Virus record (IMG/VR): IMGVR_UViG_3300035187_002838
Coordinates: 1 to 62,927 of that record
DNA: 62,927 nt
Strand: one strand, 5' to 3'
Origin: a virus
Lineage: Duplodnaviria > Caudoviricetes
Shown: positions 35,479 through 57,715 of the stretch, piece by piece
Position numbering within the stretch: position 1 is the stretch's first letter
Layout of the letters: every line of letters starts with the position of its first letter
Translations under genes and position numbers: made by a program
Notes under the pieces: model-generated
The model's database searches: none
The model's input: the letters and a program-made list of their open reading frames with translations, nothing else
What the model was told of the DNA's origin: nothing

Positions 35479-35494
35479 CCCGTTAGATTAACCC
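35479..35494 (+). promoter_or_regulatory. putative phage RNAP promoter, class B
   Basis: Identical 16-mer to 11826; upstream of lysis genes. Confidence 0.7.
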
Positions 35495-35568: not shown

Positions 35569-36096
35569 ATGATACCATTAATGATTCAGCCGCTCATTGC
35601 AGGAGGTCTTAATCTCCTTGCTAATGCAGCTATGGCAAAAGGTAAAGAATGGATTCAAGAAAAGACAGGTATTGATATTGATAAAGGTTCTTTGTCACCT
35701 CAAGAACTTCATGCTCTACAACAGTATGAAATGGATCACGAGGAAGAGCTCTTAAGAATCAAACAAGAAGACAATAGAATTGCTGCAGACCTTGAAAAAG
35801 CATATTTAGCAGATGTGCAAAGTGCTAGAAACATGCAGCAGACTGCTATCGAATCTGACGATAAATTTGTCAGACGGTTTGTGTATTACTTTGCAATTTT
35901 CTGGGCAATTTGTACGGCGTCTTACATTGGATTTATTACCTTTGGTGTAGTGCCTGAAGATAATGTAAGATTTGCAGACACAATTCTTGGCTTCTTGCTC
36001 GGCACAATTTTGTCTGGAATTTTTAACTTTTTCTATGGTTCGTCTAAAGGCAGTCAAGATAAAACTCAAGCAATGCTTAAGGAGATCTCTAAATGA
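35569..36096 (+). CDS. putative holin
   Basis: DVQSARNMQ, two hydrophobic segments, FFYGSSKGS; adjacent to endolysin. Confidence 0.7.
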   Translation: MIPLMIQPLIAGGLNLLANAAMAKGKEWIQEKTGIDIDKGSLSPQELHALQQYEMDHEEELLRIKQEDNRIAADLEKAYLADVQSARNMQQTAIESDDKFVRRFVYYFAIFWAICTASYIGFITFGVVPEDNVRFADTILGFLLGTILSGIFNFFYGSSKGSQDKTQAMLKEISK

Positions 36097-36422
36097 TGAC
36101 ATTAGGTCAACATCAAGAAGCCTTTGCGAGAGATCTTGCAAAACTATTGTCAAAAGCTTTTGAGCTAGGTTATGATGCTCGCTTAGGTGAGCTACAAAGA
36201 ACAGTTGATCAGCAGACTATTTATGTTAAGACAGGCAAGTCGCAAACAATGAATAGTATGCATTTAAAGAAATGTGCAATTGACATTTTCTTTACAAGAT
36301 CAGGGCAGCTTGTATACCCTGAAGAGCTTGGGAAATATTGGGAGAGCTTAAATTCTCTTAACCAAGCTGGTATGTTTTGGCGAAAATTTAAAGATGGTCC
36401 ACATTACGAAAGAAGGTGCTAA
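36093..36422 (+). CDS. endolysin, peptidase M15 family
   Basis: R..DQQ, SMH....AID and DGPHYE zinc-ligand motifs. Confidence 0.82.
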   Translation: MMTLGQHQEAFARDLAKLLSKAFELGYDARLGELQRTVDQQTIYVKTGKSQTMNSMHLKKCAIDIFFTRSGQLVYPEELGKYWESLNSLNQAGMFWRKFKDGPHYERRC

Positions 36423-36533
36423 ATGGCTACGAAACCAATGATCCCAATTAAGAAAGATAATTTTAAAACTTGCCCTGGATGCCCTAGTCCAGGTAAGTGC
36501 AAAGCTGCAGGCAAGTGTCTTAAAAGCAAGTAA
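36423..36533 (+). CDS. 36-aa Cys/Lys-rich peptide (not in ORF track)
   Basis: MATKPMIPIKKDNFKTCPGCPSPGKCKAAGKCLKSK; GAAGG RBS; followed by terminator. Confidence 0.55.
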   Translation: MATKPMIPIKKDNFKTCPGCPSPGKCKAAGKCLKSK

Positions 36534-36537
36534 CATC

Positions 36538-36566
36538 AACCCCACTGAAAGGTGGGGTTTTATTTT
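36538..36566 (+). terminator. intrinsic terminator after lysis genes
   Basis: AACCCCACT-GAAA-GGTGGGGTT then T-rich tail. Confidence 0.75.
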
Positions 36567-36575
36567 GGAGTTAAG

Positions 36576-36827
36576 ATGCCATACGATCCTAGTAGAAAAA
36601 GAGATTACAAAAAAGAATATAAGCAAGACCTGAAAACAGGCAAGTCCGGTCCAGATAGTGATCAACATGAACGTCAGAAGGCTAGACGAATGTATGATTC
36701 TATGGGCGTTGATAGGGATGGTAAACATATAGACCACAAGAAGCCAATTAGGAGTGGCGGTAAGTCTGTTAAAGGTAATTTAAGATTACGTGACCCTAGC
36801 AAGAACAGCGCTGATAACGGCAAATAG
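36576..36827 (+). CDS. small HNH endonuclease-like protein
   Basis: HIDHKKPIRSGG...NLR......N; GGAG RBS before ATG 36576. Confidence 0.7.
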   Translation: MPYDPSRKRDYKKEYKQDLKTGKSGPDSDQHERQKARRMYDSMGVDRDGKHIDHKKPIRSGGKSVKGNLRLRDPSKNSADNGK

Positions 36828-36841: not shown

Positions 36842-36874
36842 TGCGGAAAAGTCGGTATCTTATATGATAAGCAA
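36842..36874 (+). promoter_or_regulatory. putative early promoter, class A, copy 1
   Basis: TGCGGAAAAGTCGGTATCTTATATGATAAGCAA; near-identical copies at 40898 and 41515. Confidence 0.65.
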
Positions 36875-36939
36875 AAGCCTATCAACAAATTCATATGCGA
36901 TGCGCATATGGACTTTTGTAATCTACGCCTAAACGGGCA

Positions 36940-37215
36940 ATGGAGAAGTCAACAATGCTTTCTCACACAGAAGCTTTGTCAAAGCTGAAGACTGTTGAGC
37001 CGTCTGATCTCGTACAAATCAGTACGCGTATTGGAAAATATCTTGGACGGCCGATCTATCCGGCATCGTCGATAGTAATTGAAGAAGTAAGTGACGATGG
37101 CGGCCTTGCCGCTATGGTCAAGATGACTTACAAGGGGGTGCAGGTTTACAATTCCATGGCATATCATCCCACCCTGGCCCAGTGCATTGTCTTCGTTATG
37201 GCAAAGCATTGGTAA
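36940..37215 (+). CDS. early hypothetical protein, paralog of 37858..38130
   Basis: Shares LVQISTRIGKYLG, EVSDDGG, PTLAQCI, MAKHW with the paralog. Confidence 0.75.
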   Translation: MEKSTMLSHTEALSKLKTVEPSDLVQISTRIGKYLGRPIYPASSIVIEEVSDDGGLAAMVKMTYKGVQVYNSMAYHPTLAQCIVFVMAKHW

Positions 37216-37279
37216 GTGAAACTGAAGAGGCTTAAATAATAGCCGAAACCTAGGCCCTTCGGGGCCGATGGTCTTTCAC
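37216..37279 (+). ncRNA. type I hammerhead ribozyme 1 (cleavage after C37273)
   Basis: Stem I GTGAAA/TTTCAC; CTGAAGA core; stem II GGCT/AGCC; GAAA; stem III capped by cUUCGg; GUC triplet. Confidence 0.88.
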
Positions 37280-37299
37280 AACTTTGAAGGAATCTTCAA

Positions 37300-37605
37300 A
37301 TGAAACGTCAAGGTGCTGTATTTAACAGGCGCGAATTAAAGCGCGCAAGAAATTTAGTAAGGTGGGTTGCAAATGGATGCAACTGGAAAAATCCAGTCAA
37401 CGCAACTTCAATAGCAGCAAAATCGTCTTTAAATAACTATGCAGTTTGCATTGAAGTACTTGGATTTGCAAAGAATCTTGCAAATCAAGGAAACAGTCTT
37501 ATTACGCAATCTATAGCAGGAGCTGCTGTTGATGCCGTTCTTAGAGGAGACTTAGGATGGGCTGATGATTTGATGGACTTTTGGTCTGAACGCGGACTTT
37601 TATAA
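37300..37605 (+). CDS. early hypothetical protein
   Basis: GAAGGA RBS just 3' of ribozyme 1. Confidence 0.65.
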   Translation: MKRQGAVFNRRELKRARNLVRWVANGCNWKNPVNATSIAAKSSLNNYAVCIEVLGFAKNLANQGNSLITQSIAGAAVDAVLRGDLGWADDLMDFWSERGLL

Positions 37606-37641
37606 CCAATGAGATTTTTTTTTTTTCAAAGGAGTTTTAAA

Positions 37642-37776
37642 ATGAACGCTTATCTGCGTTACATGAAAGCCGAAGCTCGCGCTTATGAGAGCAACAATGT
37701 TTCCAGAATGTTGAAGTTGGCAAGTCTTAAAGCGCGTGCGTACAGTATGTACGGTTTAACTTGTCTTTACTGGTAA
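37642..37776 (+). CDS. 44-aa early protein (not in ORF track)
   Basis: T12-CAAAGGAG RBS; MNAYLRYMKAEARAYES...CLYW; stop abuts ribozyme 2. Confidence 0.65.
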   Translation: MNAYLRYMKAEARAYESNNVSRMLKLASLKARAYSMYGLTCLYW

Positions 37777-37837
37777 GTGAAACTGAAGAGACCTTTATGG
37801 TCGAAACCTAGGCTCTTCGGGGCCGATGGTCTTTCAC
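37777..37837 (+). ncRNA. type I hammerhead ribozyme 2 (cleavage after C37831)
   Basis: Same core; stem II covaries to GACC/GGTC. Confidence 0.88.
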
Positions 37838-37857
37838 AAACTTTGAAGGAGTCTTAA

Positions 37858-38130
37858 ATGGAAACTTTTCTCTCTCATGCAGATGCTTTAACAAAGCTGA
37901 AAACTGCGGATCCTTTCTGTCTTGTACAGATTAGTACTCGTATTGGAAAGTATCTAGGAAAGCCTCTTTATCGGACATCATCAATCGTGGTGCACGAGGT
38001 GAGTGACGATGGTGGCATTGCTGCTCAGGTTAAGATGACTTATAAAAGTAAGTCTATCGTTGATCCTGACGGAACGTATACTCCAACCCTCGCACAATGC
38101 ATTGCATTTATCATGGCAAAGCATTGGTAA
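37858..38130 (+). CDS. early hypothetical protein, paralog of 36940..37215
   Basis: GAAGGAG RBS; shared motifs with the paralog. Confidence 0.75.
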   Translation: METFLSHADALTKLKTADPFCLVQISTRIGKYLGKPLYRTSSIVVHEVSDDGGIAAQVKMTYKSKSIVDPDGTYTPTLAQCIAFIMAKHW

Positions 38131-38191
38131 GTGAAACTGAAGAGGCTTCATTAGCCGAAACCTAGGCCCTTCGGGGCCGATGGTCTTTCAC
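38131..38191 (+). ncRNA. type I hammerhead ribozyme 3 (cleavage after C38185)
   Basis: Same core and stems; loop II TCATT. Confidence 0.88.
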
Positions 38192-38206
38192 AACGGAGTT
38201 TTTTGT

Positions 38207-38608
38207 ATGAACGCAACCGCACGGTTCTCTTCCACCTCTCAAAAGGAAGACGGTCTGACTGTTACTGAAAAAACAGTCCTCACGATATGCCCTCCTGGAT
38301 GCTTCAAAGAAGAAGCGGAAGACGATGGTGTGTCTTACAAAAGCATCCTCAAGCTTTCAAATGGAAGCCACTTTCTCGTCTGGGACGAAGTAAAGAAGGA
38401 GGATGGTGTGTGGTTCTACGGATTCCACGAGTTCACTTGGGACTCGGATATCCAATACAACACCCACGTAGGTGGCATCTGCTTCTCAGCAGTTAAGCCA
38501 GGATACATCGAGTGGAATTCCCGTAACTGGGACGTGACTGATAAAGACGTCACGATGGCTGAAGAAAATAAATTCCGCCAAGTCATCCACCGCGTACTAG
38601 GCGGCTGA
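38207..38608 (+). CDS. early hypothetical protein
   Basis: GGAG RBS then ATG 38207; the track start 38180 lies inside the ribozyme. Confidence 0.65.
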   Translation: MNATARFSSTSQKEDGLTVTEKTVLTICPPGCFKEEAEDDGVSYKSILKLSNGSHFLVWDEVKKEDGVWFYGFHEFTWDSDIQYNTHVGGICFSAVKPGYIEWNSRNWDVTDKDVTMAEENKFRQVIHRVLGG

Positions 38609-38613
38609 TACTT

Positions 38614-38640
38614 AGACCTGAGCAGGTCTTTAAAAGGCTC
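38614..38640 (+). repeat. repeated H-type pseudoknot motif, copy 1
   Basis: AGACC-TGAGCA-GGTCT-TTAAAAG-GCTC; loop GAGC pairs with 3' GCTC. Confidence 0.6.
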
Positions 38641-38695
38641 TGACTGAGCGAGCTGTAGCGTAATTTTTTTTTTTTTTTTTTCAAAGGAGTGTTAA

Positions 38696-38899
38696 ATGAA
38701 AAAGTTTATGAACTGGTTTAAAAATCTGTTTCAACCGCGGTCTGCGGCAGTTCTCGCCTTGATTGAGCTTGAAGAGTCGAAGCGGCAATTTCTTGTGTAC
38801 AAGGCTTCAGAAGAACAAGGCAAACACCTGGCCAAGTACTACAGCGAAAAGATTAGCAGGCTTGAAGCCTATCTCAAAGGGGACCAAAATGAAAAGTGA
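38696..38899 (+). CDS. early hypothetical protein
   Basis: T18-CAAAGGAG RBS; 67 aa. Confidence 0.65.
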   Translation: MKKFMNWFKNLFQPRSAAVLALIELEESKRQFLVYKASEEQGKHLAKYYSEKISRLEAYLKGDQNEK

Positions 38900-38962
38900 A
38901 GATATTGGACTGATTGTCGTATCTGCAATTGCAATTCTTTTAATGATTACAGGAGTGATTTA

Positions 38963-39106
38963 ATGGTCACATTTGGGAAGTTCAAGTGGCCAGTGAGCAT
39001 CGTGAGTTACGCGCAGGAAAGCCACATGCGCAATCCCGCGTATTACCACATGTCTTTGGAGGAAATCCTCCATAAGTTTTACAGCACTTATAAGAGAGCT
39101 GTTTAA
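38963..39106 (+). CDS. 47-aa early protein (not in ORF track)
   Basis: AGGAG RBS; MVTFGKFKWPVSIVSYAQ... Confidence 0.5.
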   Translation: MVTFGKFKWPVSIVSYAQESHMRNPAYYHMSLEEILHKFYSTYKRAV

Positions 39107-39163
39107 CCCATTTAGAAGCCATTAGAGATAGTGGCTTCAATAATGTGTTAATTTTGACACAGA
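39105..39163 (+). repeat. repeated long stem-loop (RNase III site-like), copy 1
   Basis: CATTTAGAAGCCATTA-GAGA-TAGTGGCTTC-AAT-AATG; copies at 39584 and 40562. Confidence 0.6.
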
Positions 39164-39181
39164 CTTTGAAAGGACTTTGAA

Positions 39182-39580
39182 ATGAAACATTTTCCATTGA
39201 GCTTGCCGCAAGAGATCGAGCTTATTGCGCAATTGCACCTTACTGGATCGCGGTACTTTGGAACTGCAAGACCTGTTTCTGACTGGGACTTTATTGTAGA
39301 TTCTGCGTCCAACGAAGTGATTTTAGCGTTATTTCGAAGGCACAAAGCCTACCTTATTGGCTCATATGCCATCGAGACTGGAGGCCAAGTTTGGCGTTGG
39401 GATTATGAGGCTCAACAAACCCATATCGACTTCCAGATCGTTCCAAATATAGCTTGGAAGCTCCGAGCGCAAGCTTGGATCAAAGCTATGTTGGATGAAG
39501 GGTTTTGCTTTCCAGACTCAAAAGTAAAAAGAAATAAGATTTGGGAGGCTGCTTTTAAGGCGTCAGAAGACCACGGTTAA
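39182..39580 (+). CDS. minimal nucleotidyltransferase (Pol-beta superfamily)
   Basis: hTGSRYFG.....SDWDF motif plus third Asp in HIDFQI. Confidence 0.7.
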   Translation: MKHFPLSLPQEIELIAQLHLTGSRYFGTARPVSDWDFIVDSASNEVILALFRRHKAYLIGSYAIETGGQVWRWDYEAQQTHIDFQIVPNIAWKLRAQAWIKAMLDEGFCFPDSKVKRNKIWEAAFKASEDHG

Positions 39581-39583
39581 CTT

Positions 39584-39642
39584 AACTCATTTAGAAGCCA
39601 TTAGAAATAGTGGCTTCACTAATGTGTTAATGGTAACACAGA
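39584..39642 (+). repeat. repeated long stem-loop, copy 2
   Basis: Near-identical to 39105 copy, followed by the same CTTTGAAAGGAC RBS. Confidence 0.6.
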
Positions 39643-39658
39643 CTTTGAAAGGACTGAA

Positions 39659-39934
39659 ATGTTCTTGCATGTTTTCTATAACGGTAATGTTGATGTGAAA
39701 GAATTTAGTCTTCCACATGAGGCTTGGAATGCGCTGTATAAGCGTATGGAAGAGCTGTCGACAGAAGAAGTTTATGCGAAACTTTCTAATCAACCTGCAG
39801 AGGCTAATCCTTTTTTCTGGAGAAAAATTACGAAAGATCGTACTTCGCATCTTTCTATGAATCAAAAATATTTGCGAGGAATTAAAATTCTTCAGCAAGG
39901 AATTGATTCTTGGTATAACTCGAAAGGATTTTGA
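39659..39934 (+). CDS. early hypothetical protein
   Basis: GAAAGGA RBS; 91 aa. Confidence 0.6.
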   Translation: MFLHVFYNGNVDVKEFSLPHEAWNALYKRMEELSTEEVYAKLSNQPAEANPFFWRKITKDRTSHLSMNQKYLRGIKILQQGIDSWYNSKGF

Positions 39935-39935
39935 A

Positions 39936-40151
39936 ATGGGTACTATTGACAGAGCAACTGCTGAAAAGATTCGTAGCGGGGCGCTATCCCAGGTATCGAT
40001 CCAATATATTATAGAATATAATAACATGTTTAATGGAGGTCTCGCCTATGGGTGTATCGGCTGGAGAGAAAACAAACGGAGATATCACGAATCTCCAGCC
40101 TGTATCAATCCGAGGCTTTGGTGGTCTAACCCTAAAGCTGAACCTTTTTGA
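39936..40151 (+). CDS. early hypothetical protein
   Basis: GAAAGGA RBS before ATG 39936. Confidence 0.6.
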   Translation: MGTIDRATAEKIRSGALSQVSIQYIIEYNNMFNGGLAYGCIGWRENKRRYHESPACINPRLWWSNPKAEPF

Positions 40152-40163
40152 AAGGACTTGACA

Positions 40164-40418
40164 ATGAATGCTGAAATCAAGTTGGCTGCTGAAACACTAG
40201 CCACGCATACTATTGAGTTTCATTTGGCAGCCTTTAATCTGCAAAAGGCTCGAGCCGAGCACTTCGGGATGCCTGGTGAGACTCGTTCTCCTGTGACTCG
40301 TTATCCTGCTGTGATTCGCGAGCTGGAGGATGATCGTATAGATTCCTATCATCGCATGGCTAGTGCTCAAGATGCTCTTAGTGCCATGTGCAGAGAGTAC
40401 GCCAAACTTAACTTTTGA
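40164..40418 (+). CDS. early hypothetical protein
   Basis: GAAAGGA RBS; within track ORF 40158..40418. Confidence 0.6.
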   Translation: MNAEIKLAAETLATHTIEFHLAAFNLQKARAEHFGMPGETRSPVTRYPAVIRELEDDRIDSYHRMASAQDALSAMCREYAKLNF

Positions 40419-40428
40419 AGGAGTTATC

Positions 40429-40560
40429 ATGTACCGTGTGTGGATTCCTATGATTCAAAAGTGGATCGAGAATGTGCCTGTGACAGAGGCAGTAGTATAT
40501 AAGGAAGAGGGCTACAAAGTTCTTCGTATGGATCTTCCGTACGAAACTCCTCCGCGCTAA
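40429..40560 (+). CDS. 43-aa early protein
   Basis: GAAGGAG RBS before ATG 40429. Confidence 0.55.
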   Translation: MYRVWIPMIQKWIENVPVTEAVVYKEEGYKVLRMDLPYETPPR

Positions 40561-40561
40561 G

Positions 40562-40620
40562 AACGCATTTAGAAGCCATTAGAAATAGTGGCTTCAATAA
40601 TGTGTTAATGGTTAACACAG
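40562..40620 (+). repeat. repeated long stem-loop, copy 3
   Basis: Near-identical to 39105 and 39584 copies. Confidence 0.6.
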
Positions 40621-40647
40621 AAACGCCCAAGTGGGCAAGGAGGTTCC

Positions 40648-40776
40648 GTGGAAGTAGTTGTAATCGCGGTATTCTCGTTTGGTGTCCTTAGGATTCTGAC
40701 AAAGAGTCCTAGGACTACTATCAGTGAACTCTCTGGCGAGGAGGGTTTTCTCAGCGCTCGCACACAATCTGTGTAG
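40648..40776 (+). CDS. 42-aa peptide with hydrophobic N-terminus (not in ORF track)
   Basis: AAGGAGG RBS then GTG; MEVVVIAVFSFGVLRILTK... Confidence 0.45.
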   Translation: MEVVVIAVFSFGVLRILTKSPRTTISELSGEEGFLSARTQSV

Positions 40777-40852
40777 AGCACTCTATCATACCATCCAAAA
40801 GGTGGTATGTTATGAGTGTTTTAATTCAAGGCCTACGAAGGCCGATGATAAG

Positions 40853-40880
40853 AGACCCGAGCAGGTCTTAAAAAGGCTCA
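40853..40880 (+). repeat. repeated H-type pseudoknot motif, copy 2
   Basis: AGACC-CGAGCA-GGTCT-TAAAAAG-GCTCA. Confidence 0.6.
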
Positions 40881-40897
40881 TTTATCATATAAGAAAC

Positions 40898-40930
40898 TGC
40901 GGAAAAAGCGGTATCTTATATGATAAGCAA
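40898..40930 (+). promoter_or_regulatory. putative early promoter, class A, copy 2
   Basis: TGCGGAAAAAGCGGTATCTTATATGATAAGCAA. Confidence 0.65.
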
Positions 40931-40967
40931 TAGGGCTTATCAACAACATTAACCAAAGGAGTTAAAA

Positions 40968-41312
40968 ATGTTGTTGAATCTTACACCGCATACGATTGTG
41001 GTGAGGCTCTCAGATGGCGGAGAACACGTGTTCTCTCCGTTCGGCCAAACGGCTCGTGTGCAAATGATGCATGAGCCTGTAGAGAGCAGTTTCCCCTTTC
41101 CTGTCGTCACTCGCTTTGCGAGTACGATAGTTGAGGGCCTGCAGTATGACGAGCAAGGCAGGATTCTTCCGTGTCTTGTTTCGTCCATGGTTCTGGATGC
41201 CCTTCCTAAGGGTACCCAGAACGTGTATGCCCCGGATGCGGGGCCAACGGCCATTCGGGAGAATGGTCAAATCGTCGCGGTAACGCGGCTTATTCAAAAG
41301 GAGGGGTTGTGA
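40968..41312 (+). CDS. hypothetical protein (NLTPH-motif family)
   Basis: AAGGAG RBS; MLLNLTPHTI...LVSSMV...APDAGPTAIRENGQIVAV. Confidence 0.7.
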   Translation: MLLNLTPHTIVVRLSDGGEHVFSPFGQTARVQMMHEPVESSFPFPVVTRFASTIVEGLQYDEQGRILPCLVSSMVLDALPKGTQNVYAPDAGPTAIRENGQIVAVTRLIQKEGL

Positions 41313-41461
41313 AAAAACCCGAACAGATGCAAGCCGAGCAGCTTGCCAAGAACCAAGCCACAAGGGCTTGGGCTGCTTCGAATGGGGTGGGCTCTAAGCC
41401 TGCTTCGTTCCCCGAGATTTCTCGGGCACCGGTTAAGAGCCGGAAGAACATCAAGCGTTGA
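41309..41461 (+). CDS. 50-aa basic peptide (not in ORF track)
   Basis: AAGGAGG RBS, GTGA overlap with upstream stop; MKKPEQMQAEQLAKNQ...RKNIKR. Confidence 0.5.
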   Translation: MKKPEQMQAEQLAKNQATRAWAASNGVGSKPASFPEISRAPVKSRKNIKR

Positions 41462-41466
41462 TGTTC

Positions 41467-41496
41467 AAAGACCTGAGCAGGTCTTTAAAAGGCTCA
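41467..41496 (+). repeat. repeated H-type pseudoknot motif, copy 3
   Basis: AAAGACC-TGAGCA-GGTCTTT-AAAAG-GCTCA. Confidence 0.6.
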
Positions 41497-41514
41497 AAAG
41501 TGTCCGCATAAAAA

Positions 41515-41540
41515 TGCGGAAAAAGTGGTATCTTATATGA
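41515..41540 (+). promoter_or_regulatory. putative early promoter, class A, copy 3
   Basis: TGCGGAAAAAGTGGTATCTTATATGA. Confidence 0.65.
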
Positions 41541-42070
41541 AAGGAGAAATCCCTATCAAGAGAACTGTGTGTTGAGTAGCGGAACACAGACTCTGTAAAA
41601 GTTAGCTATCGAGTAGTGACGTAATCACTCAGCCAATAAGTCAAAGCTGTCAAAGAGGACGATTCTACTCACGTTGTAAGATCGCGGGTCATGCCTATAC
41701 CCGATCGCATCAAATAGGAACCCATCTGAAATATGGTGGGACCACTTAAGCATCTTTAATCGGGTGCTTAAATGGTCTGACTGGGCTGGATAATGCCGAA
41801 TTTATCCTAGGTATAGAACACCGAACATGTACGTTGTTTCAGTCTATTGGAACAAGCCGGAGTAACGTAACCGGCAACCCTTTAGCAGCGGGGAAAAGCT
41901 AGCTATGAACAACTCAGTGTTGTTCCGTAAAGACTACGAAATGTCGAGCGACAGCTGCAACATCGCTTAATCAAGCGCAGCAACACCCAGCGAGTATGGT
42001 GTATAAAAACATCTTGTGAGAATCGAATGCCGAATCGATTCGAAATTTAAGCAGGCATCAAATTGGTCTT
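41541..42070 (+). ncRNA. candidate large structured noncoding RNA (~530 nt)
   Basis: No credible ORF; more than 10 local hairpins and several long-range complementarities; starts right after a class A motif. Confidence 0.62.
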
Positions 42071-42096
42071 CAAATCAGTTCTTGAAAGGAACTATC

Positions 42097-42549
42097 ATGC
42101 GTGCTATTCAAGTTCTCCATTTCATTGTCAATGTCATTGTGAACTTCTTTATGGGAGTTCTCATTGGGTTGGCGGCCGTCAAGGTCTTTGCCCTGACGGG
42201 CTTGGCCTTGTCTTCAGGCTTTGGCTTGATCGTCTACCTGGCGCTTGCGTTCGCTGCAATGATTGCAGCCGGTACGATCGCTCAGGTGTACGATCGCGAA
42301 ATCGCCGCTTTCAGCGTCTATATTACTGGCGCGTTGATTGCGATCGCTGGCCTTGCTAGTCTCCCCATTCTGGCGCTGATTTCAGTTGCCTCTATGGTCA
42401 TCGGCTATGCTATCATGGCTGTTGGCCTTGTGGCTGGCATCACCCTTGTAGGTTTCTACAAGGCAAAGGATGCCGTCACAAGGGTTGTCAGCAATGTCAA
42501 GGCTTTCTTTAAGAAGGCTAAGAACAAGCTGACCCCGGCCCTGGCCTAA
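42097..42549 (+). CDS. multi-pass membrane protein
   Basis: GAAAGGA RBS; about four hydrophobic helices, basic C-tail. Confidence 0.7.
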   Translation: MRAIQVLHFIVNVIVNFFMGVLIGLAAVKVFALTGLALSSGFGLIVYLALAFAAMIAAGTIAQVYDREIAAFSVYITGALIAIAGLASLPILALISVASMVIGYAIMAVGLVAGITLVGFYKAKDAVTRVVSNVKAFFKKAKNKLTPALA

Positions 42550-42557
42550 AAGAAAGA

Positions 42558-42608
42558 ATAAGGGGCACCCTAAAAAGTGCCCCTTATCTTTTTCTTTTTT
42601 TTTTTTTT
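42558..42608 (+). terminator. intrinsic terminator
   Basis: ATAAGGGGCAC/GTGCCCCTTAT stem, T5-C-T14 tail. Confidence 0.8.
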
Positions 42609-42610
42609 CA

Positions 42611-42775
42611 ATGAAAAACAGAGCTATTCTACTTTCGACATTTGTAGTAGCCTCCCTACTTTTGTCAGAAGTTTTCAAGCTGTTTGATGAAGAGTACTAT
42701 AAAGTACTCGGAGGTGTTAGTGGACTTCTGATTTGTGTCTTTGTAAACAATCATCTTCAAAGGAAATCATCATGA
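42611..42775 (+). CDS. 54-aa membrane peptide (not in ORF track)
   Basis: Two hydrophobic stretches; ATGA overlap with next gene; weak RBS. Confidence 0.4.
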   Translation: MKNRAILLSTFVVASLLLSEVFKLFDEEYYKVLGGVSGLLICVFVNNHLQRKSS

Positions 42776-42984
42776 TGAAACTTTTCTTAAATGCTGCAAA
42801 AGCTTTTGCGGTAGTTTTCTTCATTGCACTTGCATTCGCAGTGTCGGCTGCTCCTGTGTTCTTTGGAATTGTATTTCTCTCGGCGACAGCCGTGGGAGCC
42901 GCAATTGTGTACGGGCTTTTCGGGGCAGTTGCAACAGGACTTATCGGGTACTTCAAAAGTGCAAAAAGCAAGCAAGATGTCTGA
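42772..42984 (+). CDS. small membrane protein
   Basis: AAAGGA RBS; two hydrophobic helices. Confidence 0.6.
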   Translation: MMKLFLNAAKAFAVVFFIALAFAVSAAPVFFGIVFLSATAVGAAIVYGLFGAVATGLIGYFKSAKSKQDV

Positions 42985-43267
42985 TGTCCAAGTGGACATC
43001 GAAGGGCTCTTCTGCGTATCTAAACAATACCCAGAAATTAACAAGAGCATGTATCTTCCAACAGAACTTTTTAAGCCTTCAGTCAGGAGGTTTAAACTGT
43101 TCAACCTTCGTGAAACGTCTATGAAGAGGCTCGTCGGAAAGCCTCTAGCGTCTACTGAATACACCGGTATTGTAGACGTAGAAGGGTCACTTGTCCCCTT
43201 CTTTATCAAAACAGACAAAGTAGAAAAATTGAGACAGGCACAAGAGAGTATAAATAGTTTTATTTAA
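42977..43267 (+). CDS. hypothetical protein
   Basis: MSDVQVDIEG... overlapping upstream stop. Confidence 0.55.
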   Translation: MSDVQVDIEGLFCVSKQYPEINKSMYLPTELFKPSVRRFKLFNLRETSMKRLVGKPLASTEYTGIVDVEGSLVPFFIKTDKVEKLRQAQESINSFI

Positions 43268-43271
43268 AAAC

Positions 43272-43333
43272 AACCTCAGGTGCCCGCAAGGGCATCTGGG
43301 GTTATTCTTTTTTTTTTTTTTTTTTTTTTTTTT
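43272..43333 (+). terminator. intrinsic terminator with T26 tract
   Basis: AACCTCAGGTGCCC-GCAA-GGGCATCTGGGGTT then 26 T. Confidence 0.8.
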
Positions 43334-43585
43334 GTGGTAAGCAAGAAAAGGGCAATTAAAAAAAGGAGAAAATGTGTCGCCGAAATCTAATTATAAAGTT
43401 ATGCATTTTCTTTTGATTGTAATTGTCTTGTTCTTATTTTCCCGACTGTCTTTTGATGCCCTGATTTTAGGCGCCCTTGTGATTTATTTATTGCAGCGAA
43501 CAGGTAAGAAAGATGATTAAGTTTTTGATTGGACTTTATCTAATTTATCTTATCCCTAAAATAATATCTAAAATAAAGGAACTTG

Positions 43586-45838
43586 ATGAAAAAGAAAATT
43601 CTTGATTCTTTAAACTCAAGAATAACAACTGAAATATCGGGACATAACCCGCTTAAATATTTGCTTAAGATTAAAACAGAAGATTATATTGATACATTAA
43701 TATCTATTGTATATCTATACACTAGACCGAAGAAGGGTCATAATAAAAATTCTATTTATCTTACAGAAGTTATTTCAGCTATCGGACACGGTATTCGGAA
43801 TAAGTTCAAACTAAAACGTGACTCAGCATTGGCGGCTAAAACTGGCGCCTTCATGTTATATACTTTTGAACATCTCGGATATATTCAAGTTGTTCTCGGA
43901 CAAGGCTCAAAAGGGCATAACACTTATCTTGTGCAAGTGCTCAATGATGATGAAATTTGCAATTTGTGGAATTCACTAGATCCTTCTCAAATTGAAAAGT
44001 TACCTTCAGAGACTCCCTACGAACCGTGGACTTCTGCAAAGCATTCAACGGGTGTCTGGCTTGTTAAAACAGGCAATAAAACAGTCTTAGACAGTCTTAC
44101 TCCAGAAACACATCCTATTGTCTTTAATTGCGTCAACAAAGCACAACAGATGGGCTGGAAAATAAACAATTGCGTTTACGATCTTCATTTGTGGGCCTTA
44201 CGAAATAAAACAGATGCATTCTCTGAAATCTGGGAATTGTCTAATGCGGAAGCAAAGGCAACTAAACTAAGAGAAGCAAAAGCTATAGGTGACATCTCAC
44301 GAAGATTCTTAAATAAAGTTTTTTATCATCTTTATTACTATGACTTTAGAGGTCGTAAATATACCGCTACTGCATATTTGCATGAGCAAGGCTCTGACCT
44401 TGCAAGAGGTCTACTATTGAGAGCAGACTCAAAACCAATTGGAAAAGAAGGCTTCTTTTGGCTAATGGTATCAATTGCTTCAAATTGGGCGGGTGATGCT
44501 GGCAGAGAAGATGGTGCAAAGACTGACAAAATACCGCTTCAAGAACGATATCTTTGGGCTCTAGACAACGAAGAAATTCTATTGTCATATGCCGAAAACC
44601 CTAAAGTAAATCAAGGTTGGATGAAAGCTGATAATCCTTGGCAATTCATTGCAGCGTGCAACGAACTAATGCGATTTAGAATCTGGCAAATGAATGTGTA
44701 TGAAAACCACAAAGATGTTGTAGCTGAATATGACTACCCATCATCGCTTGAAGTATATATTGACGGGTCAAACAATGGTAGTCAGCATCTTGCAGCATTG
44801 ACTAAAGATGAAATAATTGCACCGCATGTAAATCTGGTGCCATTAAACTTGCCTGGAGATCTCTACAAATATGTCGGTGACCATGTCTGGAAACATCTTG
44901 AAGAAGAGCTTTCTTTAATGACAAATGAAGAAATTCAGGACTGTGAACGAGTCATTGATAATCTAATTCAGCTTAAAAAGCAAATAAATGCTGCTGAACC
45001 TAAAAGTGATTTTAGAAAACAACTCATAGAACAAATCAAAGAATTTAAGTCTGAAAATGATCAGCTTATTGGGATTGCTGCACCTGTATTTTGGTCTAGA
45101 ATTAAAGATGCAAAACACAAGAGAAAGATTGTGAAAAGAAATACGATGACTATCCCGTATGGCGGAACAGCCTATGGCTTAGGTCAGCAAATCATTGATG
45201 ATGCTAGAAAGCATAATATTGAACTTTTGCTTTATATGGAACATCGATGGGGTGCATATCTCGGAAGAGAAGTGTTTAATGACTGCAAGCGTTCTTTAGA
45301 AAAGCCTATGCAATTGCTTAAGATCTTTGAAGAGGCTGGTCGAAAAGCTGAGCAAGACGGCAAGTTTTTATCCTGGACTGTGCCTGTTACAAAGTTTCCT
45401 GTAGTACAAAACTATACAGAAGGCGTTGTTAAAAAGATTTACGTACAATATGGTCCACCTCAAGGTCTTAGAAATAGCACAGGTTATTTTGATAATACAC
45501 TGCAATTAGCAATATGCTTCATTGAGGATGTAAAACCTTCTAAAGGAAAACAGTCTCAAGGTGCAAGTCCGAATATCATTCACAGTCTTGATGCTGCGCA
45601 TCTGTCTATGATTGTAGCTTCTTCTGACTTTCCTGTAACGACTATTCACGATTCTTTCGGATGTCTTCTGGCAGATATGCCTAAGTTGTTTGCAGTAACT
45701 AGACAAACATTTGTTGAACTTTATAAACAAGATCCTTTAACATCGATTATGAAAGATATAGGAGGTAATGCAAATGAAGTAGAACTAGGAAATCTTGATT
45801 TAAACTTGGTAATTGAATCCGAATATTGTTTTTGCTAA
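43586..45838 (+). CDS. T7-type single-subunit DNA-dependent RNA polymerase (stand-alone)
   Basis: DFRGRKY; motif A IDGSNNGSQH; motif B RKIVKRNTMTIPYG; PNIIHSLDA; motif C TIHDSF. Confidence 0.93.
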   Translation: MKKKILDSLNSRITTEISGHNPLKYLLKIKTEDYIDTLISIVYLYTRPKKGHNKNSIYLTEVISAIGHGIRNKFKLKRDSALAAKTGAFMLYTFEHLGYIQVVLGQGSKGHNTYLVQVLNDDEICNLWNSLDPSQIEKLPSETPYEPWTSAKHSTGVWLVKTGNKTVLDSLTPETHPIVFNCVNKAQQMGWKINNCVYDLHLWALRNKTDAFSEIWELSNAEAKATKLREAKAIGDISRRFLNKVFYHLYYYDFRGRKYTATAYLHEQGSDLARGLLLRADSKPIGKEGFFWLMVSIASNWAGDAGREDGAKTDKIPLQERYLWALDNEEILLSYAENPKVNQGWMKADNPWQFIAACNELMRFRIWQMNVYENHKDVVAEYDYPSSLEVYIDGSNNGSQHLAALTKDEIIAPHVNLVPLNLPGDLYKYVGDHVWKHLEEELSLMTNEEIQDCERVIDNLIQLKKQINAAEPKSDFRKQLIEQIKEFKSENDQLIGIAAPVFWSRIKDAKHKRKIVKRNTMTIPYGGTAYGLGQQIIDDARKHNIELLLYMEHRWGAYLGREVFNDCKRSLEKPMQLLKIFEEAGRKAEQDGKFLSWTVPVTKFPVVQNYTEGVVKKIYVQYGPPQGLRNSTGYFDNTLQLAICFIEDVKPSKGKQSQGASPNIIHSLDAAHLSMIVASSDFPVTTIHDSFGCLLADMPKLFAVTRQTFVELYKQDPLTSIMKDIGGNANEVELGNLDLNLVIESEYCFC

Positions 45839-45841: not shown

Positions 45842-46252
45842 ATGAAAACACTTGGCACAAATCTTAAGAATCTTAAAGAGTGTGGTATACCGGCACTTTA
45901 TGAGAAAATTTATAAATATTGTGAATCTTATAACAATGAAAGCTCCGATTTAGAGTTCCCTATCGGAGATAATTTTAATGTTGACCTAGGTGGTCCAATT
46001 CTTCTAGCAGAAACCGTAGAAGATTTACAAGCAATTCAAACTAATCACTATAATCACGACGCTAGTCGTTATTACAGTATTGCAGAACGTGCTTGTCAAT
46101 TTGATATTTGTGAATATTTCGATGATGAAAAGTATGTTTACGTACTGATGTGTACACACAATGGTGGCGGTACTACCTATCTGATTCTTAAAGAACTCGC
46201 AGATAAATTTGAAACAATTCGTGAAAGTATTAAGCTAACAGCCTATGATTAA
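45842..46252 (+). CDS. hypothetical protein
   Basis: 136-aa ORF in operon. Confidence 0.6.
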   Translation: MKTLGTNLKNLKECGIPALYEKIYKYCESYNNESSDLEFPIGDNFNVDLGGPILLAETVEDLQAIQTNHYNHDASRYYSIAERACQFDICEYFDDEKYVYVLMCTHNGGGTTYLILKELADKFETIRESIKLTAYD

Positions 46253-46454
46253 GATAACTAAGACATCAATTATCAGTGGTACTACTAGAACTATCGAATT
46301 ACCGATTACTCAAGATCAACTTGAGCGTTGGCAACGTGGTGAAGACTTGATTCAAAACATTATGCCAGACTTGACGCCAGAACAACGAGAGTTTGTCATG
46401 ACTGGTGTAACTTCTGAAGAGTGGGATGATACTTTTAAAGACGAGGATGTTTAA
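46245..46454 (+). CDS. hypothetical phage protein
   Basis: LIQNIMPDLTPEQREFVMTGVTSEEWD. Confidence 0.65.
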   Translation: MIKITKTSIISGTTRTIELPITQDQLERWQRGEDLIQNIMPDLTPEQREFVMTGVTSEEWDDTFKDEDV

Positions 46455-46455
46455 A

Positions 46456-46695
46456 ATGGATGTTAATAATCTTTACATTATTGCTACAATTGGCGAAAAT
46501 GATGCCAGTATTGCAATCCCACACTCTGAGGAAGCATTGGTTTTCCTATCGAAAATAAAGATTCTATATCGAACAAGTAATTGGCGTGGTATTTCAGAAT
46601 TTGAGCATACCGACAAAAAGATGTATTTGTCGCTTGTAGATTACGAGTCTATCAAGCAATTGCCTACACCTGTTCCGCCCGAAGACAAAATTTAA
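46456..46695 (+). CDS. hypothetical protein
   Basis: GAGGA RBS before MDVNNL; within track ORF 46426..46695. Confidence 0.5.
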   Translation: MDVNNLYIIATIGENDASIAIPHSEEALVFLSKIKILYRTSNWRGISEFEHTDKKMYLSLVDYESIKQLPTPVPPEDKI

Positions 46696-46716: not shown

Positions 46717-46732
46717 CCCGTTAAGTTAACCC
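46717..46732 (+). promoter_or_regulatory. putative phage RNAP promoter, class B variant CCCGTTAAGTTAACCC
   Basis: 14/16 identity with 11826; upstream of replication operon. Confidence 0.7.
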
Positions 46733-46766
46733 TCAAGTGAGGGACATGTTTTTACTAAGGAATTTT

Positions 46767-47261
46767 ATGCCGATTATTTCTAACTGCGAGTTGTGGTTTC
46801 CAAAGCTGGACCCCAAGCGTCCTAATAGCAAATTCAATAAAGAGAATCCTACGTGGGAAGTGCAAATTCGCACTACCTCGAAGGAAGTCAAAAAGAACTG
46901 GGAAGAACTTCAGCTCCCTGTAAAAGCTATTGTGCCTGATGAAGGTGCCCCGTATTACCGCGTCAATCTCAAGAAGAAAGTCTTCAAAGAAAACGGTGAA
47001 AATTCTTCTCCAGTCAAGCTTGTAAATGGTAAGCTGGAAGATATGGATCCTAATTCTGTGGGTAACGGCAGTCTTGGCAATGTTCGCATTTACCAATACG
47101 AGTATCCTAAGAAGGATGGCGGAAAAGGCTTTGCAAGCGTTTTGATGGGCGTGCAAGTTACTAAGCATGTGCTCTATACTCCCAAAGCTCGTAATGATGA
47201 GTTTGGTGAGACCGAAACGGAGATTGTAGAACCTTCTGACGACGAGACCGAAGAGTTCTAA
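46767..47261 (+). CDS. single-stranded DNA-binding protein (T7 gp2.5-like)
   Basis: VGNGSLGNV and LMGVQV OB-fold motifs; acidic tail ending DDETEEF. Confidence 0.8.
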   Translation: MPIISNCELWFPKLDPKRPNSKFNKENPTWEVQIRTTSKEVKKNWEELQLPVKAIVPDEGAPYYRVNLKKKVFKENGENSSPVKLVNGKLEDMDPNSVGNGSLGNVRIYQYEYPKKDGGKGFASVLMGVQVTKHVLYTPKARNDEFGETETEIVEPSDDETEEF

Positions 47262-47265
47262 CATT

Positions 47266-47294
47266 AAGGGGCTACCTCATGGGTAGCCCCTTTT
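47266..47294 (+). terminator. intrinsic terminator
   Basis: AAGGGGCTACC-TCATG-GGTAGCCCCTT-TT. Confidence 0.7.
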
Positions 47295-47297
47295 AAT

Positions 47298-47924
47298 TTG
47301 AAAGGAGAAATTGTGCTATATACCTATACTGTTTATAAGACTATTGACCCAGGTCGTGAAATTGTTCGCTGTGATATTTTTACAAGAGAAGAAGAACTTA
47401 AGTTCTGGCAGGTAACAAAACCTTTTCATGTTAGCGTGTTTGACAATCTTCAAAACAAAAATATTCTTATCTTAAACACTAAAGAAGCTTTAGAAGAGTG
47501 GTTTAATACGGTAGAAGATAAAAGAGTTGCTGCAGAACGGGCGTTTGCTTGGAAACCTGAAATGGATCAAAAGCCTGCAATAGGTAAAGTTGAAAAAGTC
47601 ACTGCAACAGGCAGAATTGACACAGTCACAACAATAATAAATTCAACAGCTGTTAAGCCGACACATTACGAAAACTTCATTGGTGAATATCAATGGATTG
47701 ACGCAATGTCTAGGATTCCCAGATTTAAGGATCCTAAAGTATTCATTGCAGCTGTAGAGTTACAAGTTCGTAAGTATCTCGATCGTAACGGTCGAAAAGA
47801 TGAAGAACTGCAAGAACTGAAGAAAGGTTTGTTCTACTATATGTACATGGTAAAGTACATTCAGAATAACAACACTCCTGTTTTAGCAAAAGATATCCAT
47901 GCAATTATGGAGCACTTTAAGTGA
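47298..47924 (+). CDS. protein with C-terminal DUF3310 (T7 gp1.7-like) domain
   Basis: VKPTHY...KYLDRNGRKD...ELKKGLFY. Confidence 0.6.
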   Translation: MKGEIVLYTYTVYKTIDPGREIVRCDIFTREEELKFWQVTKPFHVSVFDNLQNKNILILNTKEALEEWFNTVEDKRVAAERAFAWKPEMDQKPAIGKVEKVTATGRIDTVTTIINSTAVKPTHYENFIGEYQWIDAMSRIPRFKDPKVFIAAVELQVRKYLDRNGRKDEELQELKKGLFYYMYMVKYIQNNNTPVLAKDIHAIMEHFK

Positions 47925-49786: not shown

Positions 49787-50228
49787 TTGGAACGATATCT
49801 TTACATACAAAGACGGACAGCTTATCTGGAAAATATCACCTTCATACAAAATCAAAGAAGGTGCTGTTGCTGGGAATAAAACGGGTCCAGGTTATTGGCA
49901 AATATGTTTTAAGGGTAAGTTTTACAAATTACATAGAATTATTTGGCAAATGTTCTATGGTGAAATTCCACAGGACTTAGAGATAGATCATATTGATCGT
50001 GACAAAGACAACAATAGGATTGAAAATTTAAGGCTTGCAACACGCTCTGAAAATGCAAACAACAGAGATGCTCAATCTAATAATAAACTAGGTGTAGCTG
50101 GAGTTGTAAAAGATGGAAATAAATTTGTAGCTTATATCAGAATAAACAATAAAACAGTTAATCTAGGTAGGTTTAATACTATTTTAGAAGCAAGCTCAAC
50201 TTATCAAAAGGCAAAACTCGAGATTTAA
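49773..50228 (+). CDS. free-standing HNH endonuclease with AP2-like C-terminus
   Basis: HRIIW...IDHIDRDKDNNRIENLR; NLGRFNT..EA. Confidence 0.85.
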   Translation: MMCINWNDIFTYKDGQLIWKISPSYKIKEGAVAGNKTGPGYWQICFKGKFYKLHRIIWQMFYGEIPQDLEIDHIDRDKDNNRIENLRLATRSENANNRDAQSNNKLGVAGVVKDGNKFVAYIRINNKTVNLGRFNTILEASSTYQKAKLEI

Positions 50229-50229
50229 A

Positions 50230-50562
50230 ATGAATACTGACCCTAAACCAAGCACTCTCGCTTACACTATTCCAAAGCCAGTTAAACGATCTCAAAAGAA
50301 TCCTTTACATCTAGAGGCTCGCTATAGTATACCTCCAGACAGACAAATTGGAACAACTACTGCAATTGCATTTGAAACGATTGCTAAAGCAATTAGAAAC
50401 CCTTACACTTGGATTCCTATTTCGGATCACTATGGTACTGTCGAGGCTGATAAGCATTTACAAATGGTAATAAGTACAATATGCAGCTCTCTTGGATTGA
50501 GACAAATTTATTTCAAAATGCTAAATTCAAGACACTTTGTAGCTTTTGGAGATCCTAAGTGA
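50230..50562 (+). CDS. hypothetical protein
   Basis: 110-aa ORF in operon. Confidence 0.55.
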   Translation: MNTDPKPSTLAYTIPKPVKRSQKNPLHLEARYSIPPDRQIGTTTAIAFETIAKAIRNPYTWIPISDHYGTVEADKHLQMVISTICSSLGLRQIYFKMLNSRHFVAFGDPK

Positions 50563-50846
50563 AATTTCTCTTTAAAGAATATTTGCTTGTTGTACTCGCA
50601 GAAGAAGCTGCAGAAGTTCAGAAAGAAGCTCTCAAGTGTCTTCGATTTGGAATTAATCATTCTGAAGTAGAAGGTCACCAAAGTAATCTGGATAAGCTTG
50701 AAACTGAGTGGAACGAGCTAGTCGCAATTGTTGAAATGTTGAATGAGGAAGGCGTTAAGCTTAGAACATTCACTAAACTTATTGAAGCTAAGAAAGCAAG
50801 AACAGGATTCTATTATGAAAAATTCAGCAAACCCGATGAAGTATAA
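50559..50846 (+). CDS. MazG-like nucleotide pyrophosphohydrolase
   Basis: LAEEAAEV...KCLRFG...LETEWNEL. Confidence 0.6.
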   Translation: MKFLFKEYLLVVLAEEAAEVQKEALKCLRFGINHSEVEGHQSNLDKLETEWNELVAIVEMLNEEGVKLRTFTKLIEAKKARTGFYYEKFSKPDEV

Positions 50847-51551: not shown

Positions 51552-51633
51552 TTGGAAATGCTTTAAGTGCAACGGTAAAACAAATAATTATTTTGTAAAA
51601 TGTTTGTATTGCAATCAAAGGAGGTATATTTGA
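51499..51633 (+). CDS. 44-aa zinc-ribbon peptide (not in ORF track)
   Basis: WKCFKC-x10-CLYC; stop overlaps TTG start of the exonuclease. Confidence 0.5.
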   Translation: MFKVPEQHRLTQGPSSFSWKCFKCNGKTNNYFVKCLYCNQRRYI

Positions 51634-57713: not shown

Positions 57714-57715
57714 AC

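Follow-up and report, generated by a model that had tools for sequence, protein, structure and literature searches.

Phage-encoded RNA polymerases (RNAPs) that travel in the virion are known from several groups of phages. The packaged virion RNAP (vRNAP) of phage N4 is described as transcribing the early genes, and N4-like vRNAPs, fused to a metallopeptidase, are reported solely in N4-like phages. In the Thermus phage P23-45, the virion RNAP is described as a fusion with the tape measure protein; among the pre-early genes that it transcribes is that of a second, non-virion phage RNAP (gp64), which then transcribes further gene classes, with host RNAP transcribing the middle and late genes. Chimallin-type jumbo phages are described as carrying virion and non-virion multisubunit RNAPs. 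Cascades of a virion and a non-virion polymerase are therefore already known from N4, P23-45 and phiKZ/AR9. Here we describe a single contig of 62,927 bp, a whole siphovirus-like assembly (IMG/VR record IMGVR_UViG_3300035187_002838, referred to over its full length as the window), which encodes one T7-type polymerase fused to a MuF domain (MuF-RNAP), a second, stand-alone T7-type RNAP (RNAP2) and two promoter-like motifs, class A and class B. We propose a two-step, self-run cascade in which injected MuF-RNAP would read class A and RNAP2 would read class B, a reading to which we give an even chance of being correct.

In N4, the injected gp50 reads a few early promoters, the early region encodes RNAPII, and host RNAP makes the late transcripts. 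The window resembles N4 in having two phage T7-type polymerases that would act in sequence, and the MuF-RNAP family profile matches N4 RNAPII. It differs from N4 in its candidate vRNAP, which has ~1540-1560 amino acids (aa), is fused to MuF, lies in a siphovirus-like genome and is accompanied by no conserved promoter hairpin, and in that a single motif class (B) covers both middle and late genes. An earlier note on this DNA had set the scheme against N4 for its late use of host RNAP; the contrast is fair, but N4 is not the sole comparator, P23-45 and the chimallin-type jumbo phages being others. P23-45 is a long-tailed siphovirus with a virion polymerase fused to a structural protein, as we propose for the window phage; the P23-45 polymerases are two-barrel enzymes, related to cellular RNAP, with a tape measure fusion, whereas those of the window are T7-type enzymes with a MuF fusion. 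Transcription in phiKZ and AR9 is independent of host RNAP. The phiKZ-like phages (Chimalliviridae) and AR9/PBS2 share with the proposed scheme a packaged polymerase for early genes and a newly made one for later genes, but do so with multisubunit two-barrel enzymes and genomes >200 kb, in contrast to two single-subunit enzymes in 63 kb. T7/T3 (Autographiviridae) and the Xanthomonas siphovirus Xp10 have one T7-type RNAP, a homologue of RNAP2 that host RNAP makes early. The RNAP2 gene closes the early region, and a candidate phage promoter then precedes the replication genes as in T3, whose record annotates E. coli promoters ahead of the early genes and a phage promoter just after the RNAP gene; in the window, however, no sigma-70-like early promoters stand out and a second polymerase lies in the head module. 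The proposed system follows the logic of these phages and differs from them in the type of its candidate virion polymerase, in the MuF fusion partner and, possibly, in the coverage of all gene classes by two phage enzymes.

Among named phages, EBPR siphovirus 1 (MuF protein 58% identical) stands closest to the window, together with the roseophages DSS3_VP1 and DSS3_PM1 of the Naomviridae (RNAP2 34%, MuF protein 30%); these phages have portal, MuF-RNAP, scaffold, capsid, tail, RNAP2, PolA and primase-helicase genes in common with the window. In their database records, the fusion is called a head protein and nothing more. The text of the DSS3_VP1 paper and that of a 2025 paper on its deoxyuridine-containing DNA (dU-DNA) each contain 0 mentions of RNA polymerase, and full-text literature searches, with supplements outside their scope, returned no description of a MuF-polymerase fusion or of a comparable two-polymerase siphovirus.

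Two T7-type RNA polymerases

By its sequence, RNAP2 (43586-45838, + strand, ~750 aa) is a complete T7-type single-subunit polymerase. It matches the Pfam family RNA_pol (PF00940) with an E-value of 2.2e-62 and 211.8 bits against a cut-off of 22, and T7 RNAP with an E-value of 1.7e-38, with motifs A (DGS..G.QH), B (R...K.......YG) and C (HDSFG) aligned. The stretches YIDGSNNGSQH, RKIVKRNTMTIPYGG and IHDSFG stand opposite the catalytic residues of T7 motifs A, B and C (D537, R627/K631/Y639/G640 and H811/D812). Identity to the RNAPs of Xp10 and T7-like phages is 27-29%. Translation could start at TTG 43583 or ATG 43586 (stop 45838), the latter being the likelier because relatives open with ATG-AAA-AAG. 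RNAP2 is the closer of the two enzymes to T7: a phmmer search matched it to T7 RNAP with E=1e-38, whereas neither half of MuF-RNAP matched any RNAP.

The gene of MuF-RNAP sits between portal and scaffold, likewise in DSS3_VP1, and consists of two exons on the + strand. Exon 1 (6280-9528) encodes a MuF domain (aa 146-250), a linker and the N-terminal T7-type RNAP part through motif A (DASSSGAQ) and RKASKA, just past which its open reading frame (ORF; 6280-9531, 1083 aa) ends. The match to Pfam Phage_Mu_F (PF04233) has an E-value of 4.5e-12 and 47.1 bits (cut-off 29.6), and that to RNA_pol, at the very end of the exon, is weak (15.6 bits, below the cut-off of 22). A group I intron (9529-10387, + strand; Rfam RF00028, 89.3 bits against a gathering score of 50) lies inside motif B and carries, 3' of the ribozyme core, an ORF for an HNH endonuclease (9757-10353, + strand; HNH Pfam E=1.7e-5). 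Exon 2 (10388-11818) supplies the rest of motif B (QNMVTFYGAG), a stretch aligning with T7 residues 701-859 and motif C (TIHDAF); its ORF of 474 aa, which opens with MVTFYGAG and contains TIHDAF, matches RNA_pol with E=1.4e-6 and 27.8 bits (cut-off 22). Splicing would give a product of ~1559 aa if translation begins at ATG 6280, and of 1541 aa if it begins where it does in P0005, a metagenomic, intron-less homologue of 1541 aa that is 98% identical and reads RKASKAQNMVTFYGAG across the junction. Because the P0005 sequence is uninterrupted, the exon junction can be placed at 9528/10388 within motif B. The DSS3_VP1 orthologue (1463 aa) is also uninterrupted, and its alignment runs to 9528 and resumes at 10391. 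At the 3' end of the intron, the junction is GCT/CAA or lies 1-2 nucleotides (nt) leftward, so that the preceding base is A, C or A. Group I introns near-universally end in G; no in-frame junction leaves a terminal G here, and the nearest upstream G would add four residues within motif B.

Relatives of MuF-RNAP were collected by a word-index search, which returned 425 at E<=0.001 among 7996 scored candidates. Among the best 120 listed, PF04233 and PF00940 occur together in 84 proteins of ~1360-1775 aa, and another 25 are of exon 1 size (~1065-1152 aa) with the MuF domain only. With these 25, interruption near this site looks common in the family, pointing to an intron hot spot. EBPR siphovirus 1 shows the same arrangement of split head protein, HNH gene and ORF, with the intron 8 nt further downstream. 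An exhaustive search with exon 2 returned 70 clusters at 50% identity, with full-length members of 1411-2073 aa and no ordinary phage RNAP among them; the MuF-RNAP family is a separate, deep branch.

In 20 members of the family (22-71% identical), D998, K1061, K1064, Y1072, G1073 and D1440 (P0005 numbering) are invariant, corresponding to the motif A Asp, the two motif B Lys, the motif B Tyr-Gly and the motif C Asp. A single-sequence search with the MuF-RNAP halves against solved structures gave no polymerase match; the family profile was required, and it matched T7 RNAP (E=3.3e-12) in colinear segments that cover the DxxGR region, motif A and T7 residues 701-859, the last of these including motif C. 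MuF-RNAP thus retains a stretch aligned with the part of T7 RNAP in which the specificity loop lies. The profile also matches mitochondrial RNAPs and N4 RNAPII (E=7.2e-5). An AlphaFold model of residues 400-1524 of the intact orthologue from a relative (G001) has a predicted local distance difference test (pLDDT) score of 80 and a predicted template modelling (pTM) score of 0.76, and a Foldseek search with it placed T7 and mitochondrial RNAPs on top (E ~1e-17, template modelling score 0.36-0.61), with 74 matches at E<=0.001. No solved chain of the N4 virion RNAP was among the profile matches or among the Foldseek matches ranked 1-50. N4-like vRNAPs have roughly 3500 aa, a zincin-like peptidase and an N4-type neighbourhood; MuF-RNAP has ~1541-1559 aa, and only MuF and RNA_pol reach Pfam significance. 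Judged by profile and predicted fold, MuF-RNAP is a polymerase of the T7/mitochondrial type and not N4-like. The earlier note had assigned a stand-alone T7-type RNAP to 43586-45838, which the Pfam score and the aligned motifs confirm, and had named a MuF-RNAP; the catalytic residues, profile and predicted fold identify the latter as a real polymerase, although not as one ORF, being split by the group I intron and its HNH gene.

From the MuF domain and the gene order, we infer that MuF-RNAP is packaged in the virion and ejected into the cell, in analogy to what the literature on MuF fusions describes.

Two promoter-like motifs

Class A (TGCGGAAAARNNGGTATCTTATATGA) has three matches at <=3 mismatches in the window, all on the + strand, where 0.00 are expected, and class B (CCCGTTARNTTAACCC) has four at <=2 mismatches, also all on the + strand, where 0.14 are expected and 0 of 100 shuffles reached four. 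The copy counts of both classes rest on these mismatch searches. The class A copies lie at 36842-36871, heading the early region, at 40898-40927 with a hairpin of the repeat family D8 18 nt upstream, and at 41515-41544 with a D8 hairpin upstream and 475 nt without an ORF downstream. The class B copies lie at 11826-11841, 8 nt after the MuF-RNAP stop and ahead of scaffold and capsid; at 35479-35494, ahead of the lysis genes; at 46717-46732, ahead of PolA, primase-helicase, ribonucleotide reductase (RNR) and ligase; and at 61250-61265, ahead of an ORF at 61404-61973. The restriction of class A to the early region and the position of class B before the capsid, lysis, replication and 61.4-kb units, both asserted in the earlier note, hold in every case. 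The 475 nt after the third class A copy (41541-42015) contain no + strand ORF of >=45 aa and no Rfam match, and are partly deleted in a 98% identical relative (L003).

In 17 distinct instances from the window and its relatives, class A shows a conserved block tGCGGaAAaA-N2-gGTATCTTATATGATA, with conservation falling sharply after GATA. The invariant positions GCGGAAAA and GGTATCT lie outside the sigma-70 hexamers, and no -35 element is present in class A. No enrichment of sigma-70-like sites is seen: the early region has 32 where 26.1 are expected, the stretch at 60.9-62.9 kb has 5 (expected 4.0) and that at 1-12.7 kb has 32 (expected 31.0). With no -35, no sigma-70 enrichment and a class-A-like motif in DSS3_VP1, these sequence features make a host promoter unlikely. 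Sigma-54 and Bacteroidota-type readings of class A were rejected by eye against the respective consensus sequences. N4 early promoters are DNA hairpins with a short stem and a 3-nt loop, and class A copies 1 and 2 hold a hairpin of 5 bp and 3 nt (the palindrome CTTAT-ATG-ATAAG). However, the right arm is intact in just 8 of the 17 instances, with no compensatory change, so that an N4-type hairpin promoter was rejected and a duplex, T7-style promoter is the more likely.

In 20 distinct instances from the window and its relatives, class B shows a conserved block A.cCCGTTAa.TTAACCCT, with conservation falling sharply after CCCT. Its sequence resembles T7-group promoters and shares TTAACCCTCA with a T3 promoter consensus, which we built from 14 annotated T3 promoters. 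The copy at 46717 matches 17 of the 23 consensus positions and is the only + strand site in the window with >=16 matches; the other three copies share just TTAACCC(T) with the consensus. The same copy overlaps a hairpin, CCCTC-loop-GAGGG (46730-46743), which recurs with variable loops in 10 of the 20 instances, all of them being the copy after RNAP2. In many IMG/VR contigs (L126, L130, L139 and L141 among them), class B occurs as a tandem pair ~105-115 nt apart.

The two motifs were compared across 17 IMG/VR loci encoding RNAP2 relatives of 47-98% identity. Seven of these loci hold class A matches, always on the + strand and upstream of RNAP2; in six of them, the distance from the last copy to RNAP2 is ~1-2 kb. 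Nearly all loci have class B 0.6-1 kb past RNAP2, and a variant in one locus (L016) lies 116 nt upstream of RNAP2. Class B copies at the position of copy 1 are present in G001, G008 and EBPR siphovirus 1, the last of which has class B variants, one of them just after polymerase exon 2. The 65-kb genome G001 (94% complete) carries class B four times and class A twice, in the order seen in the window, one class B copy lying 9 nt after the MuF-RNAP gene, and in two other relatives (G002, G005) class B lies ~80-90 nt upstream of the homologue of ORF 61404-61973. Larger relatives have a second block of small ORFs, likewise headed by class A, that follows the homologue of the 61.4-kb unit. G007 and G008 place class B 46-130 nt upstream of this class A copy, as would be expected of two promoters active at different stages.

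In exact-match scans of IMG/VR, a 16-nt class A core occurred in 99 stretches and class B in at least 117. Many of these must be chance, yet 12 contigs have both motifs among the matches listed (80 per motif). Four long contigs had class B and no listed class A match, and no single-polymerase relative was found among them: two (G006, G009) have neither polymerase, their motifs being chance matches, and two (G007, G008, both 100% complete) have both polymerases and both motifs. In Pelagibacter phage Kolga, an RNAP2 homologue goes with a MuF protein that lacks a polymerase part, and no recognisable class A or B motif was found in its AT-rich genome.

DSS3_VP1 carries a class-A-like motif, GAGAAAAC-N4-GGCATCTATAATGA, at approximately 35.8, 36.3 and 67.8 kb, the first two copies opening the early region. 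The motif is kept although the RNAP2 of DSS3_VP1 is just 34% identical. The phage also has a class-B-like repeat of its own, ATAGGGTGCGTTAAAG, at no fewer than seven sites (at least 2333, 19202, 19237, 45926, 46393, 46551 and 59196), with a variant ATAGGTTACGTTAAAGAGGGG at 6580, 7408 and 29396. These sites precede portal, tail and replication genes, and one also follows the RNAP gene; the searched text of the DSS3_VP1 paper makes no mention of a promoter-like repeat. Being 19-30 bp long, strand-specific, intergenic and invariant in diverged relatives, both motifs behave, as far as sequence can tell, like promoters of phage-encoded single-subunit polymerases.

A proposed transcription cascade

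Based on these features, we propose the following order of events. MuF-RNAP would be made late with the head proteins, anchored in the capsid by its MuF domain, and would enter the cell with the DNA. There it would recognise the ~30-bp duplex class A motif, transcribe the small early genes and read through two hairpin/U-tract attenuators into RNAP2. RNAP2 would then recognise class B, with the core CCCGTTAnnTTAACCC, and transcribe the replication, head and tail, and lysis genes as well as the 61.4-kb unit with terminase, portal and MuF-RNAP behind it. As the weakest step, host RNAP may be dispensable throughout.

Three considerations support this order. Something present at infection must read class A, because RNAP2 itself lies in the class A region. 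The MuF-RNAP gene belongs to the late head module. In addition, RNAP2 stands nearer to T7 RNAP than MuF-RNAP does, and class B nearer to T3 promoters than class A. The swapped assignment, with RNAP2 on class A and MuF-RNAP on class B, was rejected on gene position, RNAP2 being encoded within the class A region and MuF-RNAP in the late units. The cascade suggested in the earlier note is thus partly supported, in that both polymerases are real, the motifs are promoter-like and the layout fits an early-to-late order, while we infer which polymerase reads which motif.

Several observations weigh against the proposed cascade. The MuF-RNAP gene is split within the O-helix codons by an intron without the usual 3'-terminal G, and if this intron were unspliced, the window phage would have no working MuF-RNAP. 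The roughly 175-kDa MuF fusion would have to be packaged and ejected, as its domain and gene order suggest, and the text of the DSS3_VP1 paper contains neither the word 'virion' nor 'structural protein'. Two strong hairpin/U-tract elements separate the last class A copy from RNAP2, in most relatives too. The first (42558-42608, + strand) lies inside the last class A unit, has a T14 tract and folds at -24.3 kcal/mol (z -5.4); the second (43272-43335, + strand) lies 250 nt upstream of RNAP2, has a T26 tract and folds at -26.2 kcal/mol (z -5.9). If termination at these 42.6- and 43.3-kb elements were efficient, class A could not deliver RNAP2; RNAP2 must be made by read-through, unless the elements act only on another polymerase. 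Nor do the stretches aligned with the T7 specificity loop discriminate between assignments: in the comparison of the window with DSS3_VP1, both enzymes have diverged in them, each with a 12-residue indel. Two further points, the promoter of the terminase-portal-MuF-RNAP unit and a perfect TATAAT (like a host -10 element) in the DSS3_VP1 version of class A, bear on specific alternatives and are taken up with them.

The alternative that survives best, although we regard it as unlikely, is that the cascade is not self-contained and that host RNAP transcribes part of the genome, for example the terminase-portal-MuF-RNAP unit, as it does the late genes of N4 and P23-45. Searches allowing 2-3 mismatches found neither motif class for this unit (62272-11818), and a strong terminator-like hairpin with T8 (62206-62250, + strand; -25.3 kcal/mol, z -5.45) precedes it, so that it may need another, possibly host, promoter. 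However, sigma-70-like sites are unenriched at 60900-62927 and 1-12700, and with read-through of the 62.2-kb hairpin the four class B copies, which G001 shares, would suffice for every module.

A second alternative, which we consider improbable, follows T7 and Xp10: host RNAP, perhaps with a phage factor, would read class A to make RNAP2, RNAP2 would read class B, and MuF-RNAP would have another role, for example in the transcription of a few pre-early genes from a different signal, in priming or in drawing DNA into the cell. In favour of this, the core of class A is rich in AT and contains TATAT/TATAAT, similar to a -10 element, an RNAP2-only scheme exists in the distant relative Kolga, and the early region holds further structured repeats, D3 and D8. 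Yet class A has no -35 and its invariant GCGGAAAA and GGTATCT fall outside the sigma-70 hexamers, its ~30-bp conservation is held between phages whose RNAP2 is only 34% identical, and D3 and D8 are each confined to one relative.

Least probable of all, and in our view very doubtful, is that class A is no promoter but an operator of a phage regulator or a leader or processing element of early RNAs, with the early promoters elsewhere: inverted repeats flank copy 2 (12 nt) and copy 3 (5 nt), the palindrome is present and copies are often preceded by a D8 hairpin, but the palindrome's right arm decays in the way noted above, the flanking repeats are not conserved, and class A is always on the gene strand upstream of small-ORF blocks, where no other motif is conserved across relatives.

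Genome organization and further elements

All large ORFs of the window are on the + strand, with a GC content of 34-47%, and the modules run from terminase and portal through the MuF gene, scaffold and capsid, tape measure and tail, lysis, small ORFs, RNAP2 and replication to the 61.4-kb unit. A portal-like gene lies at 3284-4861, the scaffold gene (PHROG 206) at 11900 and the capsid gene, which matches the annotated coat protein of DSS3_VP1, at 12634. The tape measure gene (17001-27362, 3453 aa), which marks the genome as siphovirus-like, contains three internal repeats of ~100 nt each (family D1); by the rule of thumb of ~1.5 Angstrom per tape measure residue, the tail would be roughly 0.5 micrometre long. 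The lysis genes (35569-36827) are followed by the early region (36842-43520, ~6.7 kb), whose small ORFs have no family matches. Three small ORFs (45842-46695) separate RNAP2 from the next class B copy, behind which lies the module for replication and nucleotide metabolism (46737-61089), with PolA, a 5'-3' exonuclease, primase-helicase, class II RNR and ligase. The T8 hairpin at 62.2 kb stands between the 61.4-kb ORF and the terminase-portal-MuF-RNAP unit.

Homing-endonuclease-like genes occur elsewhere in the window as well (49746-50228, 52421-52945 and 62462-62926); two ORFs share an HNH-like repeat (family D15), and the replication module contains a SegE-type GIY-YIG gene (E=7.5e-19).

Long T tracts, T18 (38659-38681), T14 (42583-42608) and T26 (43304-43335), each follow a hairpin and lie just upstream of a ribosome-binding site. 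The order of hairpin, T tract, small hydrophobic ORF and RNAP2 recurs in most relatives, and relatives have tracts of T11-T13 in this position ahead of RNAP2.

Three additional families of structured repeats, D3, D4 and D8, occur in the early region. D3 (74 nt, two hairpins, z -4.7) precedes early ORFs at 39103-39176, 39582-39655 and 40560-40633, and has five copies with 91-96% nucleotide identity in a relative (L004, 178-1753) whose RNAP2 protein is 79% identical; it may be an element of RNA processing or stability, or a small mobile unit. D4 (69 nt; 37213-37281, 37771-37839 and 38125-38193) forms a GGCCC-UUCG-GGGCC hairpin within a GUGAAA/UUUCAC stem and lies between paralogous early ORFs, those at 36940 and 37858 sharing a 183-nt repeat. 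As core promoters, all three families were rejected, D3 and D8 each being found in one relative and D4 in none.

DSS3_VP1 has dU-DNA, and its deaminase was later shown to be a dCTP deaminase. The annotated deaminase ORF has no match in the window at E<=1e-5; a dTMP phosphatase could not be found in the record. The dU-DNA pathway is therefore probably not shared by the window phage, and dU-DNA was rejected as a reason for self-contained transcription.

Implications

Extended from the window to its family, the proposal is that a widespread clade of siphovirus-like phages, with hundreds of metagenomic genomes, together with the Naomviridae roseophages, runs its whole transcription programme without host RNAP, using two T7-type enzymes, with a near-invariant ~30-bp promoter for MuF-RNAP and a diverged, T3-like promoter for RNAP2. 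We put this wider claim forward tentatively, as possible but not the favoured outcome. The cultured relatives DSS3_VP1 and DSS3_PM1, which infect Ruegeria pomeroyi, make the cascade directly testable. If true, the two compact pairs of polymerase and promoter might be orthogonal to those of T7, T3 and SP6 and serve as tools. MuF-RNAP would then have no precedent as a T7-type virion polymerase outside the N4 group, nor as a MuF fusion with a polymerase as cargo rather than a toxin or a modifying enzyme. The cascade would represent a third independent way to start transcription without the host, beside the giant vRNAP of N4 and the two-barrel enzymes of phiKZ/AR9, crAss-like phages and P23-45, built from the simplest type of polymerase and a common head-protein anchor, and it would explain how these phages infect very different hosts with an almost unchanged early promoter.

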